The position numbers and the translations under genes were made by a program. This document shows positions 3,963 to 27,894 of a DNA stretch of 64,000 bases, in pieces; the first letter of the stretch is position 1; each line of letters begins with the position of its first letter. Below the pieces are notes generated by a model that was given only the letters and a program-made list of their open reading frames with translations, was not told the DNA's origin and did not search any database. Location: the NCBI GenBank assembly GCA_029562645.1, contig JAKQUI010000005.1:327961-391960 (forward strand). The letters are read 5' to 3'. Source of the stretch: Spirochaetota bacterium (GTDB lineage: Bacteria; Spirochaetota; UBA4802; JAKQUI01).

Positions 3963-4829
3963 TCACGTGATCAACTCGACGATCCGGTCGAAGTCGTCGA
4001 GCGAGTAGTAGCTGATCTCGATGGTGCCGTGCGGTCCGGCGTGCTTGATCTCCACCTTGGTCCCCAGGCGGGACACCAGAAGCTCCTCCATCTTGCGGAT
4101 CTGCGGGTTTTTCGATTTCGGTTTCGCCGGCGACGGTTTCTTCGTGCCGGCGCTTCCGGCGAGACGCGATTCGAGCGCGCGGACGGAAAGCCCGTTGTCG
4201 ATGATCTCGCGAAACAGCGTTTTCTGCTGGGCGCCGGAGGTCCCGAGAAGGACCTTCGCATGGCCCACGCTGAGCTCGCCCGCGGAGATGCTCGCCTGTA
4301 TCTCGGAAGGAAGCGCGAGCAGGCGCAGGAGATTCGCGATGGTCGCGCGGTCTTTCCCCACGCGCCCGGCGATATCGTTCTGCGTGAGGCTGAATCGTTC
4401 GGAGAGGACCCTGTACACCTTCGCCTCTTCGATGGGATCGAGATTGGCGCGCTGGATGTTCTCCACGAGGGCCAGGGTGATATTCTCCTCCTCGGAGGCC
4501 TGGATGACGATGGCCCTGATCTTCGGCACGCCCGCAAGCTTGGAGGCCCGCAGGCGCCGCTCCCCGGCCACAACGAAGTAATCGGACCCCGCGCGGCGAA
4601 CGATGATCGGCTGCAGCATCCCGACCGATCGGATCGATTCCGCCAGACCCTTGATCTCGTTCTCGTCGAAGTGCGTCCGCGGCTGGTCGGGGTTCGGCTT
4701 GATGGCGTTCGTGTCGATGTGCACGATGCGATCGCCGTGCGCAATCACCTGCTCCTCGAAATCCGCGACCGGCGTCGTCGATTTCGAGATGATGGCCTCC
4801 AGGCCCTTCCCCAGCGCCTTCTTAGCCAT
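3963..4829 (-). CDS. parB: Chromosome partitioning protein ParB/Spo0J
   Basis: [17 protein letters not shown]...[31 protein letters not shown] has ParB-box motifs. The start is at the internal Met, with a 5' overlap with the parA stop. The upstream part of ORF 3963-4982 is spurious. Confidence 0.9.
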
Positions 4830-5583
4830 TGGCGAGCACCTCCAACGCGAGCTTCTCGTAGCTGTCGCTCCCGGTCGAGTGCCGATCGTACATGCCGATC
4901 GGTTTCCCGAACGAGGGCGCTTCGGAGAGGCGGACATTCCGGGGAATGATGGTGGTGAAAACCTTCTCTTTGAAGAATTCACGCACGTCGCTCACCACCT
5001 GCTGGGCGAGATTGGTGCGCGGGTCGTACATGGTGAGCACCACGCCCTCGATCGCCAGGCGCGGATTGAGACGCTCCTGGACCATCGCGATGATGCGGAG
5101 CAGCTGGCTCAACCCCTCGAGCGCATAGTATTCGCACTGGAGCGGGATGAGGACGGAGTCGGCCGCCACCAGGCTGTTGAGCGTCAGGATGCCCAGCGAC
5201 GGCGGGCAGTCGATGAAGATGTAGTCGTACTCGTCGCGTATCGCCTGCATCGCATTGCGCAGGGTGAATTCCTTGCCCTCGAGGTCCAGGAGCTCTACCT
5301 GGGCGCCCGAGAGGTGTATGTTCGACGGGACGATGGACAGGTTCGGCACCGAGGTGGGCTGGACGCACTGCGCGATGGTCTTCTCGCCGGTGAGCACCTC
5401 GTAGACGGTGCTGGTGATCTCCTCGACGCGCACGCCGAGGCCATAACCGGCGTTCGCCTGCGGGTCGATGTCGACGATGAGCACGCGGCGGCCCTTCTCG
5501 GCGATGAACGCCGCGATGTTGACCGTCGTCGTCGTTTTTCCAACGCCGCCCTTCTGGTTGGAAACCGAAATGATCCTGCCCAT
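4822..5583 (-). CDS. parA: Chromosome partitioning ATPase ParA/Soj
   Basis: [26 protein letters not shown]... has a deviant Walker A. It is 253 aa, Soj-size. Confidence 0.9.
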
Positions 5584-5603: not shown

Positions 5604-6794
5604 CTATCGTCGGACTCTGCCGCGAAACCTCTTTGTAAAAAAGAGCGTTTTAATTGCAAGAATTAAAATCGCAAGGCACGCCACGGCCGCTGCGCCGTAG
5701 AGGGCGTAGCGTACATGGGGACGGGCCCGTCGGCCGGACGCGGCGAGGAGCGCATACGGCGTCGCGCGCACGCCGCGGGACGGGTAGAGGTGGACGCGCA
5801 CGGTGCGATCGCCATCCGAGGGAATATCCACAAGGAATTCGCGCTGGTCCAAGGAATAGGCGGCCAGCAGCGAGTCGCTCGAAAATACGTCGAGCGAGAG
5901 CTCGTCGCCCGCGCAACTGACATAGAGCGTGTTCATTCCCGATTGCAGCGGGACCAGATAGGCGCGCACCGCTTCACCGGCGAGCACACGGTCGGCGATG
6001 CGGACCCGCACGGTCTGGCCGTTCTCGCGCGCCCGCTCCTCAAGGGACGCCACGAGATCGCGATGGTACAGCCGGTACGCGAGGAAGCGGAAGAGCTCGG
6101 TGATGCGGTCCTCGTGATGGCTCGAAAACGCGATAGTCCCCTTCCCGCGCGAGATCAGCGCTGCGACGGGTCCGGAGCGCTCGCCGCGCGGGGTCGAGAA
6201 CTCTCCGGTCGCGAGCGGAACGGCGCCGCTGATCGACTCCGGTGCAACCCATCCCGAATGAAGCACGGTTCGGGTGTCGTGGCGCAGCCGGGTGAAGGCC
6301 AGGAGGTCCCCGTGGTGGGTCAATTCGACCGTTCCCGCGCGGCCCACATTGGGAAAGCCGTCGAAGAATGAGAACATGGAAAAGGCGCACTGGGCGTATT
6401 CGTACGAAAGGTCTGAGAAATACGCCGCCCCGCCGTTTTCGACATACTGGCGGATGGAGCCGCATACGCGCGCGCGGTTCACGGAATAGTGATCGTCGGT
6501 CAGGGTGACGGCGTTGAGCCGGATGCCGTGCGAGCGGACGTCGATCGCGTCTTCGATTGCGGGGCCGATCCCGCAGGGAAAAAACAGGACCCGGTAGGTT
6601 CGCGCGGGGCGCTCGAGGTCCTTCAGTCGTATTCGCTCGAAGGGGATGGAGAGCTGTCGCAATGCCGCGCCGGCGTTTTCGAACTTTCCTTCGACAAGGC
6701 CGGCGGGCTGATCCGCATTCGCGCGCGTCGCGTCGCGGGCCGTCTGCGAGAACAGCGGGAGAATCATGAGGGCGATAACGGCAACAGTGCGCAC
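5604..6794 (-). CDS. Hypothetical exported protein with C-terminal membrane anchor (possible class-I glutamine-amidotransferase-like fold)
   Basis: Signal peptide [19 protein letters not shown] and a C-terminal TM helix [18 protein letters not shown]. The [10 protein letters not shown]...[10 protein letters not shown] segment hints at a GATase1-like fold (weak). Confidence 0.55.
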
Positions 6795-6800
6795 GGCGAA

Positions 6801-8750
6801 TCAGCTCGTGAGGTCGCGGATGCGCTTTATGATCGAGCGCCGCTCGTCGAGGAGCCGGTAGAGGGAGCTCTCCTTGCAGGCAAAGGCGAGCTGGTAACAG
6901 AATGCGATGGCGACGAGCAGGAAGCCGGGATTTGCGAGATCACCGACCACCTCGCGCGCCACGAGATACTTCGATGCCTGTGCGCGCCCAGGAAAACCCT
7001 TGATCGTGCAGTCGAAGAAGGGGAACTGCCGGCCCGCCTCGTCGGTATCGTCCACGGCGCTCCGGGAGAGAAGGGGCGTGCGTGCATCGTCCGGCCCGTC
7101 GGATGATGCGTCGGAGGCGCGCCAGCGCTGGTGCGTTCGAAGCAGGCGGTGGCACTCCGACCCGATCTGGTAGAAAACGCTCGCAAGGCGCCCGAGGTAG
7201 TGCTGCAGGTGCGCAAGGGACTTCGTTTCGCCGCTCAGGATCCGCTCCACCTGGGTGCGCGTGACGACCAGGGTGGGGTTGTTCGACTTAAAATAATGGA
7301 TCTCGCCCTGGAGCTCGAGAAACAGCGCGCGCTCCTTTTCGAAATAGGCGGGGCCGAAGAGCGCCTCGTCGCGCGTTTCGCCCCGGGCGTCCTGAAGCGT
7401 GGCGCGCGCGCCGGCGATGATCGGCAGAATCACACCGGCGAAAAAGGCGAGGCATCCCTCCATGAATCCGAAGAAATTCTCCTCGTGCTGCGTGCCCGGA
7501 TCGCCCTTCTTTTTGTCGATATGCCGCCACTGGTGTTCAAATGCGCTCTGAAGGAGAAGGCTCGCGCCCTCGCCGAGCTGGAGCAGGGAGTTCACCTCCT
7601 CGTAGTAGACGAGCTCGCGGCGAAGCTGCTCGGCGTATCGGCGACGCTTCGTTTCCGGGTCCTTGCCGATCTTTTTCAGATAGTCCGCGCTGTAGTCCCA
7701 CGAGTCGGTCCGGACCGTCGGGGCGCCGATGGCGTAGTGCTCCACGATGTCCGCCGGCGCGACTTCACGTTCGAACACGAGTGCCTCGAGCGAAGCCAGC
7801 AGAAAATCGGGAAAAGAGGGAAGCCCGTATTTTTTCTTGAGCAGCGCCGAGAGCGCGCTTTCCGCGCCGATCGTCGCGGGGAGGAAGGACCGGATGAGCC
7901 CGATGAATTCGTGGATGGTCTTTTCGGACGAGAGGTTCTTCTTCTCCTTGTCGCGGCGGACCGCATCGGTGTCGCGCTCGTCAAACGGCTCCTTTCGTAG
8001 ACCGTCGAGCTCCCGAAGGCGGCTTTCGACGAGCAAAAAGAGCTGCTCGCGCGTTTCCCCGTCAAGCCGCAGAAAGGAGAAGAAATAGATCGCGTAGTCC
8101 TTGAGTTCCGGCTCGAAAACCGAGCGGTCCATCCACTTTGCGCGGTCCGGCGGGACCTGCGAGAAGGGCGCGATGAGCATCCATCGCGCCAGGACGCGCA
8201 GATAGTTGAAGTGCGTGGGGTCCTCCACCGCGGGGTCCGCGAGCAGCGCCTCCATGACGCGCTGCAGCAGGACCGTTACCGTCTCTTGGCACGCGGCGAT
8301 CTCGCGAAATACGGCGAAGTAGCGCGGCAGCGGCACCAGACGCTTCCGAAAGCCGATCCCAAAGCGGTTGTTCGCGTGGATGAGCAGGCGCTTTTTAAAG
8401 AGCTTATATTCGCGGTATTTATCGTAGAGCGTGGGTATCGCTTTCCTCGTGAGGTCGGAGGGTTCAGGTGCGGACGCCGGCTTTTCAGGTTCGGATTTTT
8501 TTGCGGGAACGGGCTTTTTTCGTAGCACTTGCGGTTTCTTTATCTCCACCCGCTCGCCGGGCGGCGCGCCTCGCGGTTTGTCCGGGCACGATTGGATGAG
8601 GTCGATGATGGTGCGGTACTTCTCGTCGGGGGAAATCGCGCCGTTGTTGATGAGCGAGCGCACCAGGTCCATCTTGGCCGGCGGAATGTCCTTGTCGAGC
8701 AGAAGCGATTTCGCCCGCCGCTCGAGCTTTTTTATGTCCTGGGGGTTCAT
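6801..8750 (-). CDS. Hypothetical protein (649 aa), no recognisable domain
   Basis: Long ORF with coding-like composition. Its stop lies 6 nt upstream of the next gene's start, in the same orientation as parAB. Confidence 0.6.
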   Translation of the reverse strand: MNPQDIKKLERRAKSLLLDKDIPPAKMDLVRSLINNGAISPDEKYRTIIDLIQSCPDKPRGAPPGERVEIKKPQVLRKKPVPAKKSEPEKPASAPEPSDLTRKAIPTLYDKYREYKLFKKRLLIHANNRFGIGFRKRLVPLPRYFAVFREIAACQETVTVLLQRVMEALLADPAVEDPTHFNYLRVLARWMLIAPFSQVPPDRAKWMDRSVFEPELKDYAIYFFSFLRLDGETREQLFLLVESRLRELDGLRKEPFDERDTDAVRRDKEKKNLSSEKTIHEFIGLIRSFLPATIGAESALSALLKKKYGLPSFPDFLLASLEALVFEREVAPADIVEHYAIGAPTVRTDSWDYSADYLKKIGKDPETKRRRYAEQLRRELVYYEEVNSLLQLGEGASLLLQSAFEHQWRHIDKKKGDPGTQHEENFFGFMEGCLAFFAGVILPIIAGARATLQDARGETRDEALFGPAYFEKERALFLELQGEIHYFKSNNPTLVVTRTQVERILSGETKSLAHLQHYLGRLASVFYQIGSECHRLLRTHQRWRASDASSDGPDDARTPLLSRSAVDDTDEAGRQFPFFDCTIKGFPGRAQASKYLVAREVVGDLANPGFLLVAIAFCYQLAFACKESSLYRLLDERRSIIKRIRDLTS

Positions 8751-8874: not shown

Positions 8875-9891
8875 TTAGTAAAGGTTGAAGGTCAGCGATG
8901 CGCCAATAAAAACGTAGTGGACGATGCTGGTAACCTGTGTGCGATCAGCCAATGTTAAACCATCTGGATCAAAATTCGGATTCAGATTTGTTTCACAAAC
9001 ATATTGGTTGATAAATGAAACGTTTGATGCAAGTTTCAATGAGTAACCGAGGTAGGCCCTATTGCGATAGTAGCCGATCTTTGCGAAACCGCCATCGCCA
9101 TACGCCATTCGGGACTCATTGTTGTCCCTGTTGCGTTCAGTGGTTTTATTAGGATCTTCAGACTGCTCATTGTCGGGAACGAAACGGGTTTCATTGTCGG
9201 CAATCGTACCGTAGAAGATTTCATAGCGGGCGAAAATGGTTGCTGTCTTCGTGAGTTTGTATTCAAGACCAACGAGCGCACGAGTGGTCATGGCCCATCC
9301 ATATTCTTCGCTCTTGTCCCAGCCTCTACGATATGATCCCCCGTCCGTGCCGTCAGCATTTGTACGCAATACCCAAGTCTCGGTGTTTCCCTCAAAGATC
9401 TGATTATAAAGGATAATCCGAGCCATAATGGTGAAATCACCAATTGTATACGAAGGAACTGCCCATACGTTGATCGCATGTTCATACGGGTAGTTGTTTC
9501 TCGTATTGTGAATGTTTTTACTGTCGGATTGTGGAGAACCGTTGAAATACCAATCGGCACCAAAGGTTACCTTTAATGAATCATCGACTTTTAAGTTATA
9601 GAGGAAACCGGTATACAGCTCAAGAAACCAAACGCCTAACGGTTGCCCGTTGTGGCTAGTCTGAGCCGTTTTGGGATCATACGTATCTCTTCTATAATGT
9701 TCTGTCCGAACATTAGGTTGTGTGAACAATCCGAATTCCGGGCTTAACATGAATTTAAGATCCAGCATCTCCCATGTACGGTGCATATCCTGTACGCGAG
9801 CACGGGGCGCATCAGCAAACACATTCGTCGATCCGATCGCCAGAATGGCTGCCAGCGCGATTAGTACAAGCACTTTGAATTTCATACGCAT
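8875..9891 (-). CDS. Outer-membrane beta-barrel protein (porin-like), in a low-GC islet
   Basis: Signal peptide MRMKFKVLVLIALAAILAIGSTNVFA. Alternating hydrophobic pattern with C-terminal ...ASLTFNLY (aromatic terminus). Markedly lower G+C than the flanks. Confidence 0.6.
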   Translation of the reverse strand: MRMKFKVLVLIALAAILAIGSTNVFADAPRARVQDMHRTWEMLDLKFMLSPEFGLFTQPNVRTEHYRRDTYDPKTAQTSHNGQPLGVWFLELYTGFLYNLKVDDSLKVTFGADWYFNGSPQSDSKNIHNTRNNYPYEHAINVWAVPSYTIGDFTIMARIILYNQIFEGNTETWVLRTNADGTDGGSYRRGWDKSEEYGWAMTTRALVGLEYKLTKTATIFARYEIFYGTIADNETRFVPDNEQSEDPNKTTERNRDNNESRMAYGDGGFAKIGYYRNRAYLGYSLKLASNVSFINQYVCETNLNPNFDPDGLTLADRTQVTSIVHYVFIGASLTFNLY

Positions 9892-24303: not shown

Positions 24304-26043
<1,740 letters not shown>

Positions 26044-26046
26044 CGG

Positions 26047-26508
26047 CTACTGCGCGCTCTCTTTATAGTAGAGGTCGATGTCGAACCCGCCGAAGGCGGA
26101 CTGGAAGGAGAGGTTCACGTTCTCGTAGAAGGTCTTGAGCGCGATGGGGTCCTCGTTGAACTCGGGGGCCGAGAGGCGGACATTGTGTTTGATGAACTGG
26201 AGCTGGTTGGCGAAGGTCCCCGTGATCATGTTCGCGATCTCGCCGGCGATCTCGCGATGGTGCTTGCGCACCGCGCGGGGGCTCACCGACGGCATGATCT
26301 TTTTGGTGAGCTGCGACAGCGTCTTCTCGGGGATGTTGATGACGATCTCGCCGGAGATGGTCCCCGCGAGCTCGATGCAGACGCGCGGATCGTTCTCGTG
26401 CGACTGCGCCTCGAACACCTCCGTGATGGTGTCGTCCTTGATGAAGTTCTTGAAGATGTGGTCCACCGAGCGCGCGATGTATCGGGAGTAGCGGTCGTTC
26501 TTGTCCAT
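26047..26508 (-). CDS. CheX/CheC-family chemotaxis phosphatase-like protein
   Basis: EIAGEIANMITGTFANQLQFIKHNVRLSAP fits the CheC/CheX active-site motif E-x2-N-x22-P. The start is at the internal Met MDKNDRY. It lies 3 nt upstream of the SSS gene. Confidence 0.55.
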   Translation of the reverse strand: MDKNDRYSRYIARSVDHIFKNFIKDDTITEVFEAQSHENDPRVCIELAGTISGEIVINIPEKTLSQLTKKIMPSVSPRAVRKHHREIAGEIANMITGTFANQLQFIKHNVRLSAPEFNEDPIALKTFYENVNLSFQSAFGGFDIDLYYKESAQ

Positions 26509-26910
26509 GGATCCTGCCGGTTTCGGTTCGGCGATTGCGCCGGAGTGCCGTTCCGTTGTGCGATGGCCGTGGAGAAATATCAAGCCTTTTCGCTCGCCCG
26601 CGCGCAATTTTCGGGGCCGGAAGGATTTCTCGCCCGCCGATTTAGAATTATGTCACATAATTGGCCGATGTGTCAGTTGTTCACAAGGTGACATATTCCG
26701 CGAATGTGCCGCCCGGCGGGATCGGGCCGCCGGATTCGAATGTCAATATAAAATGAGGCGCTCCGGGTCGCAGAAGAAATTTTTTTTACGGCTAAGTGCT
26801 GATGCCGTCAGGCCGTGCATATTTTATGTCTCATCGGAGGCGTCAGGCCCACAATGCAAAAGTTGCTTAGTGAAATTTCTTTATCAAAATATTTAAATTA
26901 TATATATAAT

Positions 26911-26940
26911 TGTGGACACTGTGGATAATATTGTGGACAA
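26911..26940. promoter_or_regulatory. Cluster of three DnaA-box-like 9-mers (TGTGGACAC, TGTGGATAA, TGTGGACAA) beside a 26-nt pure A/T tract
   Basis: TGTGGATAA is the reverse complement of the consensus DnaA box TTATCCACA. The neighbouring two differ by 1-2 nt. The cluster is embedded in a roughly 300-bp A+T-rich intergenic island (26690-27000). Confidence 0.5.
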
Positions 26941-27109
26941 GTTTGATAAATAAATAGGCATTCTCTCATTTATGATGATAAATATCGCTACACATAGTCT
27001 CACGCTGCATGTGCAACCGGGATGCGTCGGTCACGTTATCGGCAATACGACGATGCATGGGCGGTTTTTCGCGTTGGATGAAATGGCGATGATGACGTAT
27101 GCCGACGGA

Positions 27110-27894
27110 TTAGGCGCGATTGAGATCGTAGAGGAGCTTGATGCCCTTCAGGGTGAGATGCGGGTCGACGCGCGCGTCAAGGGTGGCGTGGGCGGCGATG
27201 ATGTCCGCATAGCCGCCGGTGAGCACGGTGGTGAAGGCGGTGCCGCAGCTGCGCTCGATGCGTTGCACCACGCCCTCCACCAGCGAAAGCCAGCCATAGA
27301 AGACGCCCGCCGCGACCGCGTCCGCCGTATTGCGCGCGATGGGCGTGCCCGGATCGCGGAACTCGGCGCGGGGCAGGCGCGAGGTGCGCTCGGCCAGCGC
27401 GTCGATGCAGATCCCCGCGCCCGGCGCGATGAGGCCGCCCTCGAAATCGCCGTTCGCGCGAAGGACGCAGAAGGTGATGGCCGTCCCCAGGTCCACGATC
27501 ACGCAATCGCTGGCGTACTCGCGGCGGGCCGCGGCGGCGTTCGCGATGCGGTCGGCGCCGAGCTGGGACGGGTCGTCGTAGCACAGGCGGACGTTTAGGC
27601 GGATCGCGTGCGAGACATCGAATGCATCGCAGGAACAGAGCGAGCGTGCGGCCGCATGATAGGCGGCGTTGAGCTCCGGGACCACGCTCGAACAGGCCAG
27701 GGCGCCTACGGCGTCAGTGGAGCCGCTCTCCGCGCGATACGCCGCGAGGGCGGCTTCGATGTCGCGGATCAGATCGTCGGGGGTTGCGTTTTTTCGGGTC
27801 GCATAGCGCCGTGTCGCATGCGGCGCGGGATCGTCGTCGTGAAAAAATCCCAGGGTGGTGTTGGTGTTGCCTATATTCGCGCCGAGAAGCATCA
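27110..27894 (-). CDS. coaX: Type III pantothenate kinase (CoaX/Baf)
   Basis: MLLGANIGNTNTTLGFF...IVDLGTAITFCVL...GGLIAPG matches CoaX motifs. Its start ATG overlaps the stop of the HEAT-repeat gene (TGATG). Confidence 0.8.

Follow-up and report, generated by a model that had tools for sequence, protein, structure and literature searches.

A conserved cluster of DnaA boxes between coaX and a CheX-like/SSS operon in uncultured spirochaetes

The DnaA boxes and the conserved module

The 601-bp spacer at positions 26509-27109 of a 64-kb stretch of DNA from an uncultured spirochaete (the whole stretch is hereafter denoted the window) separates the 3' end of coaX, the gene for type III pantothenate kinase, from the start of a gene encoding a CheX-like protein, which is followed by a gene for an SSS transporter; gene callers find no gene in it. 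We describe here a cluster of DnaA boxes in this spacer that belongs to a module of about 300 bp conserved among Leptospirales-like spirochaetes and is probably a secondary, non-origin DnaA-box cluster in the control region that precedes the CheX-like/SSS operon. The first-pass annotation of the window had noted three box-like words at 26911-19, 26920-28 and 26932-40, next to a 26-nt A/T tract in an A+T-rich island, and had read them as an oriC, a DnaA-titrating element or a DnaA-regulated promoter. The words, the tract (26886-26911) and the island (25-29% G+C at 26850-27000, against about 64% window-wide) are all present as reported. As for the reading, the involvement of DnaA is strongly supported by the conservation of the boxes and their fixed spacing, whereas the oriC option conflicts with skew, gene orientation, and the lack of dnaA/dnaN and of DnaA-trios. 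The four boxes of the window are:

26932-26940, minus strand: box 1, TTGTCCACA (TGTGGACAA on the plus strand), one mismatch, with G at position 3; relatives align TTATCCACA or ATATTCACA
26920-26928, minus strand: box 2, a perfect TTATCCACA (TGTGGATAA on the plus strand), 3 bp after box 1; invariant in 15 of 15 sequences
26911-26919, minus strand: box 3, GTGTCCACA (TGTGGACAC on the plus strand), abutting box 2; the TCCACA core is invariant in 15 of 15
26677-26685, plus strand: distal inverted box, TTGTTCACA, two mismatches, 225 bp from box 3

Boxes 1 to 3 are arranged head-to-tail, successive starts being 12 and 9 bp apart and the gaps measuring 3 bp and 0 bp, and on the plus strand the middle one is the exact reverse complement of TTATCCACA. 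At the place aligned with the distal box, relatives carry TGTGGATAA, TGTGGACAA or TGTTGATAA, 227-249 bp from box 3. The variant with G at the third position, found in boxes 1 and 3, is used by high-G+C actinobacteria, and because the same variant serves there, these boxes probably do not represent decay. The word TGTGGAYA occurs 5 times in the 64 kb, compared to 1.3 expected, and three of the five occurrences fall within 30 bp. Words within two mismatches of the box reach 8 per 600 bp in the spacer, the maximum of the window (mean, 0.9), so that the box-density scan suggested in the first-pass annotation, when run within the window, finds the spacer to be the densest place. This is the sole DnaA-box cluster in the 74 kb examined, that is, the window plus 10 kb past its left end (locus L026).

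The organism recurs in many metagenome assemblies, on contigs of up to more than 1 Mb. A search with the CheX-like protein against species-representative genomes yielded 19 loci from metagenome-assembled genomes of Spirochaetota/'Leptospirales' (34-59% G+C), and two alignments of distinct homologous spacers, A1 (11 sequences) and A2 (15 sequences), were built from uncultured Leptospirales-like spirochaetes spanning 36-64% G+C. Neither box 2 nor the core of box 1 or box 3 varies among the 15 sequences, and the boxes keep the same distances from one another, although the neighbouring proteins of the same genomes are merely 41-67% identical and the remainder of the spacer is largely unalignable; neither the first 100-200 nt after coaX nor the CheX-nearest part is conserved between clades. 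In all ten loci where coaX still precedes CheX, an A+T-rich island in the corresponding position contains perfect TTATCCACA words, and no module was found in the ten CheX loci with enough upstream sequence but without coaX there (seven, plus three further non-syntenic ones). Conservation with fixed spacing across such distant genomes strongly supports a real box cluster over a chance one.

Besides the boxes, the module comprises the following parts:

26640-26955, minus strand: the whole conserved module, about 300 bp, read towards the CheX-like gene (alignments A1 and A2)
26873-26910, unstranded: A+T-rich block, located where relatives carry AATTAATTT(A/C)C repeats
26824-26834, unstranded: ATG-N3-CAT palindromic block, ATGAGACATAA on the minus strand
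26799-26811, unstranded: CTG-N7-CAG block, CTGACGGCATCAG on the minus strand, with C, T and G invariant or nearly so and CAG mostly retained in A1 and A2
26772-26789, unstranded: A/T tract (A8 on the minus strand), a T-run or A-run in all relatives

In both alignments, a spacer of about 10 bp lies between the tandem boxes and the A+T-rich block. Box 3 shares one base with the 26-nt run of pure A/T. Relatives have two or three AATTAATTT-type words with a period of 13-14 bp, whereas the window copy is A+T-rich but lacks the repeat. The ATG-N3-CAT block reads ATGAGACATAA, ATGTGACATAA, ATGCGACATAA, ATGTCGCAT or ATGAAC..GTTCAT in the relatives and has a second copy in the window at 26648-58. The CTG-N7-CAG block overlaps the GCCGTCAGGCC repeat of the first-pass annotation. 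The minor repeats listed there exist as well, namely, CGTCAGGCC at 26806-14 and 26841-49, and the inverted words TATGTCAC and GTGACATA at 26649-56 and 26688-95. Inspection by eye, with no scan made, revealed no convincing or consistently placed WATCAANNNNTTR word, the IHF consensus, in the central blocks.

A separate feature of the window is a 14-nt inverted repeat, ATTTCTTTATCAAA / TTTGATAAATAAAT (93% complementary; 26875-26888 and 26942-26955), which flanks the three boxes and the A/T run and was not spotted, by eye, in relatives.

The genes around the module are as follows, and the flanks and the distance to parAB agree with the initial description:

27110-27883, minus strand: coaX (Pfam Pan_kinase, 1.7e-54), its 3' end facing the module
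26047-26508, minus strand: CheX-like gene (Pfam CheX, 2.7e-11), the first downstream of the module; gene callers agree on its start
24304-26043, minus strand: SSS transporter (Pfam SSF, 2.2e-25)
3963-5583: parA (4822-5583) and parB (3963-4982), about 21 kb from the cluster

Further downstream of the SSS gene are genes for an ECF sigma factor, MoeA and a ThiI-like protein, all on the minus strand. Assignment of the SSS protein as a pantothenate permease (PanF), which would tie it to coaX, is unsupported, with a score of 51 bits against a cut-off of 328. In four relatives from both G+C classes (L150, L151, L154 and L155), compared over 10 kb to either side, one strand carries the conserved order selD-selA-selB-HEAT-coaX-[module]-CheX-SSS-...-MoeA-ThiI-like-formyltransferase; in the window genome, genes for LysE, a 4Fe-4S protein and a TetR regulator take the place of the selenocysteine genes.

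The module is not bound to these neighbours. L079 and L105 retain the whole module downstream of coaX with a different downstream gene, and L076, likewise followed by another gene, retains it with no coaX visible, coaX being upstream of the module in every other locus. Because the module is kept in these three loci despite the changed neighbours, we regard it as a unit in its own right.

The promoter-like site and proposed control of the CheX-like/SSS operon

Between the distal box and the CheX-like gene, two further features were detected:

26647-26676, minus strand: sigma-70-type promoter-like site, CTGACA, 18 nt, CATAAT, with an upstream TG (extended -10 TGACATAAT at 26655-26647)
26646-26662, unstranded: perfect 17-bp palindrome AATTATGTCACATAATT over the -10, a candidate operator specific to the window (inverted-repeat scan I12)

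In the consensus scan, the promoter-like site has 10 of 12 matches plus the TG. Its TG-extended -10 hexamer begins exactly 24 nt past the inverted box in five sequences, the window and the low-G+C relatives L010, L012, L016 and L018; L009 has TATCATATA at the same -10 place, and in the clade with 57-59% G+C, TGTTATAT(T/C) lies 41 nt past the inverted box. Judging by the match to the consensus, this site is a putative promoter, which would place the centre of the distal box near -41, and of the options raised in the first-pass annotation, it is the DnaA-regulated promoter that gains from this fixed arrangement. Promoter-like matches in the spacer number 4 compared to 0.9 expected, and A+T-rich spacers yield many.

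Two other promoter readings were dropped. For a sigma-70 promoter with boxes 2/3 as the -35 and TATAAT at 26897-26902, relatives read ATTAA with no final T, and if the TGGTGTAAAATACTTGCA block of the 57-59% G+C clade is taken as a sigma-54 site, its spacing, assessed by eye, is off by 2 nt. The half-site word of the AATTATGTCACATAATT palindrome recurs in the ATG-N3-CAT block at 26824-26834, and one factor may bind both.

The tandem array also occurs far beyond spirochaetes. A metagenome scan for CACAANNTTATCCACANNNTCCACA recovered at least 120 loci; among the matches listed, unrelated bacteria predominate, including many from the gut. No dnaA homologue was found in any of these loci (at least 120), 39 of which have at least 2 kb on both sides. 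The array is located upstream of an operon encoding a DnaB_2 (DnaD-like) protein and a DnaC/IstB-like loader, near hpf(-secA), by the gene for V-ATPase subunit D, and by rhodanese-lepA. The exact array (box, 3 bp, box, 0 bp, box) is found in L075, L100, L106; L034, L088, L043, L104; L035, L047, L083; and L067, L113. These sites in other phyla look like candidate DnaA-regulon promoters, and from its sequence contexts the tandem array is a predicted high-affinity DnaA site that recurs at non-origin promoter regions in several phyla. Given such non-origin occurrences, the array alone is no evidence for an origin.

Taken together, the arrangement of the module suggests the following mechanism. DnaA would bind the tandem array cooperatively and with high affinity, and the bound oligomer would reach the weaker, promoter-proximal box over bendable A+T-rich DNA, probably with the assistance of other factors at the two palindromes. 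Transcription of the CheX-like/SSS operon would thereby be tied to the amount or the nucleotide state of DnaA. By analogy with the clusters of Bacillus subtilis, the site may also be a sink that titrates DnaA from the true origin; replication itself would not start at the module.

Several points weigh against a secondary cluster that serves the operon. The word 'secondary' is justified by polarity tests and not by a mapped primary site; a single genome provides the decisive skew test, and the four-fold sites that it uses are not perfectly neutral, being exposed to codon selection. The module is also origin-like in its size, in having boxes of both orientations and in its A+T-rich repeats. About 290 bp separate the tandem array from the putative promoter downstream of it, a long distance for simple regulation. 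Finally, the next downstream gene in L105 and L076 is convergent to the module, and because these loci keep the module all the same, it apparently does more than drive a promoter, so that a role like that of Escherichia coli datA or DARS stays alive.

Such a role can be conceived in two forms. In the broader one, which we regard as less likely than the main reading, the module would be the spirochaete counterpart of datA/DARS, a dedicated locus conserved across a Leptospirales-like order, in which DnaA and two site-specific partners at the palindromes would assemble into a nucleoprotein complex that sets the activity of DnaA in initiation, with the promoter reporting it to the CheX-like/symporter operon. 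In the narrower one, the module is a dedicated locus of the DnaA cycle with no role in transcription, where DnaA-ATP would be hydrolysed, or ADP released, by a DnaA oligomer assembled together with bending proteins at the central palindromes. The length of about 300 bp, compared to 262 bp for minimal datA, and the combination of a head-to-tail set, a distant box and intervening blocks resembling protein sites, as in datA, fit this scheme, and so does retention of the module in L105 and L076, where no co-oriented gene follows; moreover, datA-analogous clusters restrain initiation in Bacillus and Streptomyces (PMC3245932, PMC5742627). However, the essential datA boxes all face one direction, unlike the inverted distal box of the module, and the tandem boxes are head-to-tail, whereas box I of DARS opposes boxes II and III (PMC5742627). 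Also, no IHF-type site is convincing by eye, and the fixed 24-nt link to the extended -10 points to a transcriptional role in addition. We therefore consider a dedicated locus without a part in transcription unlikely.

Replication polarity and the origin question

The module could alternatively be the oriC of this spirochaete lineage, displaced from dnaA, with DnaA on the tandem boxes opening the adjacent A+T-rich repeats. This would agree with the presence of only one box cluster in the 74 kb, with perfect boxes in both orientations, and with the A/T run and 25% G+C on the side of the boxes where the unwinding element of E. coli and B. subtilis is located (PMC6669920). The periodic AATTAATTT-type words of the relatives, the persistence of the module through changes of flanking genes and the distance of 21 kb to parAB are compatible with it as well. 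Nevertheless, polarity, gene orientation and the gene neighbourhood make an origin here very doubtful.

The first-pass annotation had proposed GC skew as a check, and within the window there is no switch at 26.9 kb. At four-fold sites, the coding-strand GC skew of plus-strand genes is +0.03 to the left and +0.04 to the right of this position, and that of minus-strand genes is -0.136 and -0.124. In a weighted fit, the strand-specific component is positive both to the left (+0.086; bootstrap 95% confidence interval, 0.042-0.143) and to the right (+0.080; 0.044-0.117), with both intervals excluding zero, and the coding-strand component is -0.046; a model in which the sign changes at 26.9 kb performs much worse than one with a constant value (sum of squared errors, 140 versus 89). 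The AT skew at four-fold sites, negative on the plus strand on both sides, and the all-site GC skew (+0.067 on one side, +0.070 on the other) agree with the lack of a switch. The CheX-MoeA block beside the module shows a lagging-type skew, which an origin would forbid. In L150, L151, L154 and L155, with 10-kb flanks, there is a small left-right skew difference in the same direction, a point for an origin, but it amounts to just +0.07 to +0.08 with no sign change, and because these orthologues already show a difference of +0.04 in the window, which has no switch, most of this difference is gene-specific.

Gene orientation and content are equally unfavourable. In five genomes, the module is faced head-on by five to seven genes that lie on its coaX side and share one orientation, and the window shows the same tendency. 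None of dnaA, dnaN, recF and gyrB was found in the window, in the 10 kb past its left end or in the fetched loci; for dnaA and dnaN, these loci numbered 154 besides the 74 kb (all those fetched save the E. coli reference), and an E. coli DnaA query matched no locus. Thus, the search for dnaA/dnaN suggested in the first-pass annotation yielded nothing near the spacer, whereas origins of sequenced spirochaetes are predicted beside dnaA (PMC2897892). DnaA-trios were sought as a box followed by a spacer of 0-16 nt and at least three repeats of (NAN) on the TGTGGATAA-reading strand, along which DnaA loads 3'->5' (PMC8287927, PMC6669920). The run is 2 in the window and 1-4 in relatives, where its position is not conserved, and these runs are equalled or exceeded in 32-100% of shuffled sequences; no DnaA-trio array was detected by this rule, although the box-plus-trio unwinding module is described as broadly conserved in bacterial origins (PMC8287927). 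In addition, the module has just 4-5 boxes. We keep a little weight on an origin because of the imperfect neutrality of four-fold sites and because the clean skew test covers one genome.

Two other places were considered. The stretch of 45% G+C at 9-10 kb, a possible alternative origin, turned out to be a low-G+C gene: an open reading frame at 8878-9886 (minus strand, 338 aa, 41-45% G+C) with a signal-peptide-like start and no Pfam match, together with flanking A+T-rich DNA to 10080, explains the dip. It may be a foreign gene or one for an outer-membrane protein. Past the left end of the window, eight plus-strand genes at 11356-18261 of L026 have a four-fold-site GC skew of -0.09 compared to +0.03 inside the window, which could reflect a codon bias of these particular genes or a change of polarity around window coordinate 0; the all-site skew of that stretch is unremarkable, and it contains no DnaA-box cluster. 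A polarity change just past the left end was set aside, the four-fold-site hint not recurring in the all-site skew.

By neutral-site skew (G>C, T>A), the plus strand looks like the leading one, and 29 of the 46 genes of the window, including the whole coaX-CheX-MoeA block, are on the minus strand. If the skew is read correctly, the window looks to have an unusual head-on gene bias.

Next to parAB, two minus-strand genes at 5604-6794 and 6801-8750 (about 390 and 649 aa; no Pfam/NCBIfam match) are contiguous and co-oriented with parA-parB, upstream of parA. No match to the parS consensus, with up to two mismatches, was found anywhere in the window. These four genes, parAB and those for the two large proteins, may form a non-canonical partition-like cluster.

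Two last readings can be dealt with briefly. It is most improbable that the spacer is an ordinary A+T-rich promoter or intergenic region with box-like words that are due to chance or read by another protein: promoter-like matches are plentiful, and single box-like words are not rare (8 within one mismatch across the window compared to 4.4 expected), but three boxes fall in 30 bp, TTATCCACA is the canonical DnaA box and is invariant at fixed spacing in 15 sequences, and the same array stands beside replication genes in unrelated bacteria. The first-pass annotation had allowed that, if the origin mapped elsewhere and DnaA did not bind the site, only the operon's promoter with chance words would be left; this fallback is wrong as well, because the boxes are conserved and not due to chance. 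A structured small RNA or riboswitch-like leader, to which the long (601 bp), gene-free spacer with conserved blocks might be suited, is hardly credible either, given that Rfam searches returned nothing at the gathering score or below E = 0.1 in the spacer, that the RNAalifold consensus reaches -0.7 kcal/mol with pairing only in the A/T palindrome and a compensatory change at one pair in one sequence, and that no tRNA or tmRNA and, on reading the sequences, no conserved small open reading frame was found. Because conservation is concentrated in primary-sequence blocks, two of them palindromic, the module resembles protein-binding DNA.

Comparison with known DnaA-box clusters

To our knowledge, E. 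coli, Bacillus and Streptomyces are the only bacteria in which control of DnaA by non-origin box clusters has been elucidated, and we know of nothing comparable described for spirochaetes. A module of about 300 bp with fixed internal spacing, retained from 36 to 64% G+C, is thus a precise candidate for DnaA control in an uncultured lineage, and it suggests a link between DnaA status and a CheX-like/transporter operon. It also illustrates that boxes beside an A+T-rich tract, however textbook-looking, are insufficient to call an origin.

In common with the basal unwinding system of oriC, the module has tandem boxes followed by A+T-rich DNA on the correct side (PMC6669920, PMC8287927), and a distal box in either orientation is also known from incC of B. 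subtilis. Unlike oriC, however, it has no DnaA-trio array, no skew switch and no dnaA/dnaN neighbour, and the flanking genes are co-oriented through it.

In E. coli, datA titrates or inactivates DnaA (PMC5742627). Like the module, it is non-coding and about 260-300 bp long, with separated boxes that are thought to cooperate across bent DNA. The essential datA boxes, however, share one orientation and require the single IHF site that boxes 2 and 3 flank (PMC5742627), whereas the module has an inverted distal box and an attached putative promoter. DARS1 and DARS2 resemble the module in their core of three close DnaA boxes with a regulatory flank (PMC5742627), but box I of the DARS core opposes boxes II and III, whereas all three boxes of the module are head-to-tail, at 12 and 9 bp start-to-start.

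Among spirochaetes, DnaA of Borrelia acts as a transcription factor at dnaX-ebfC, a precedent for spirochaete DnaA controlling promoters beyond its own (PMC9879097). The target genes differ from those next to the module, and no comparable multi-box module is known to us from that work.

The closest parallels come from B. subtilis, where DnaA binds eight high-affinity regions (PMC4447404) and six DnaA-box clusters lie outside oriC, some of which regulate their neighbours and which together restrain initiation (PMC3245932); Bacillus clusters are usually near the origin (PMC3245932). Like the module, the clusters at yydA-yycS, ywcI-vpr, sda and ywlC consist of intergenic consensus boxes with no dnaA beside them, and some B. 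subtilis clusters overlap promoters, just as the module is joined to a putative one. In contrast to the Bacillus clusters, for which no common architecture is known, the module of Spirochaetota is a defined element of about 300 bp, with a distal inverted box, two palindromic blocks and an order-level range.

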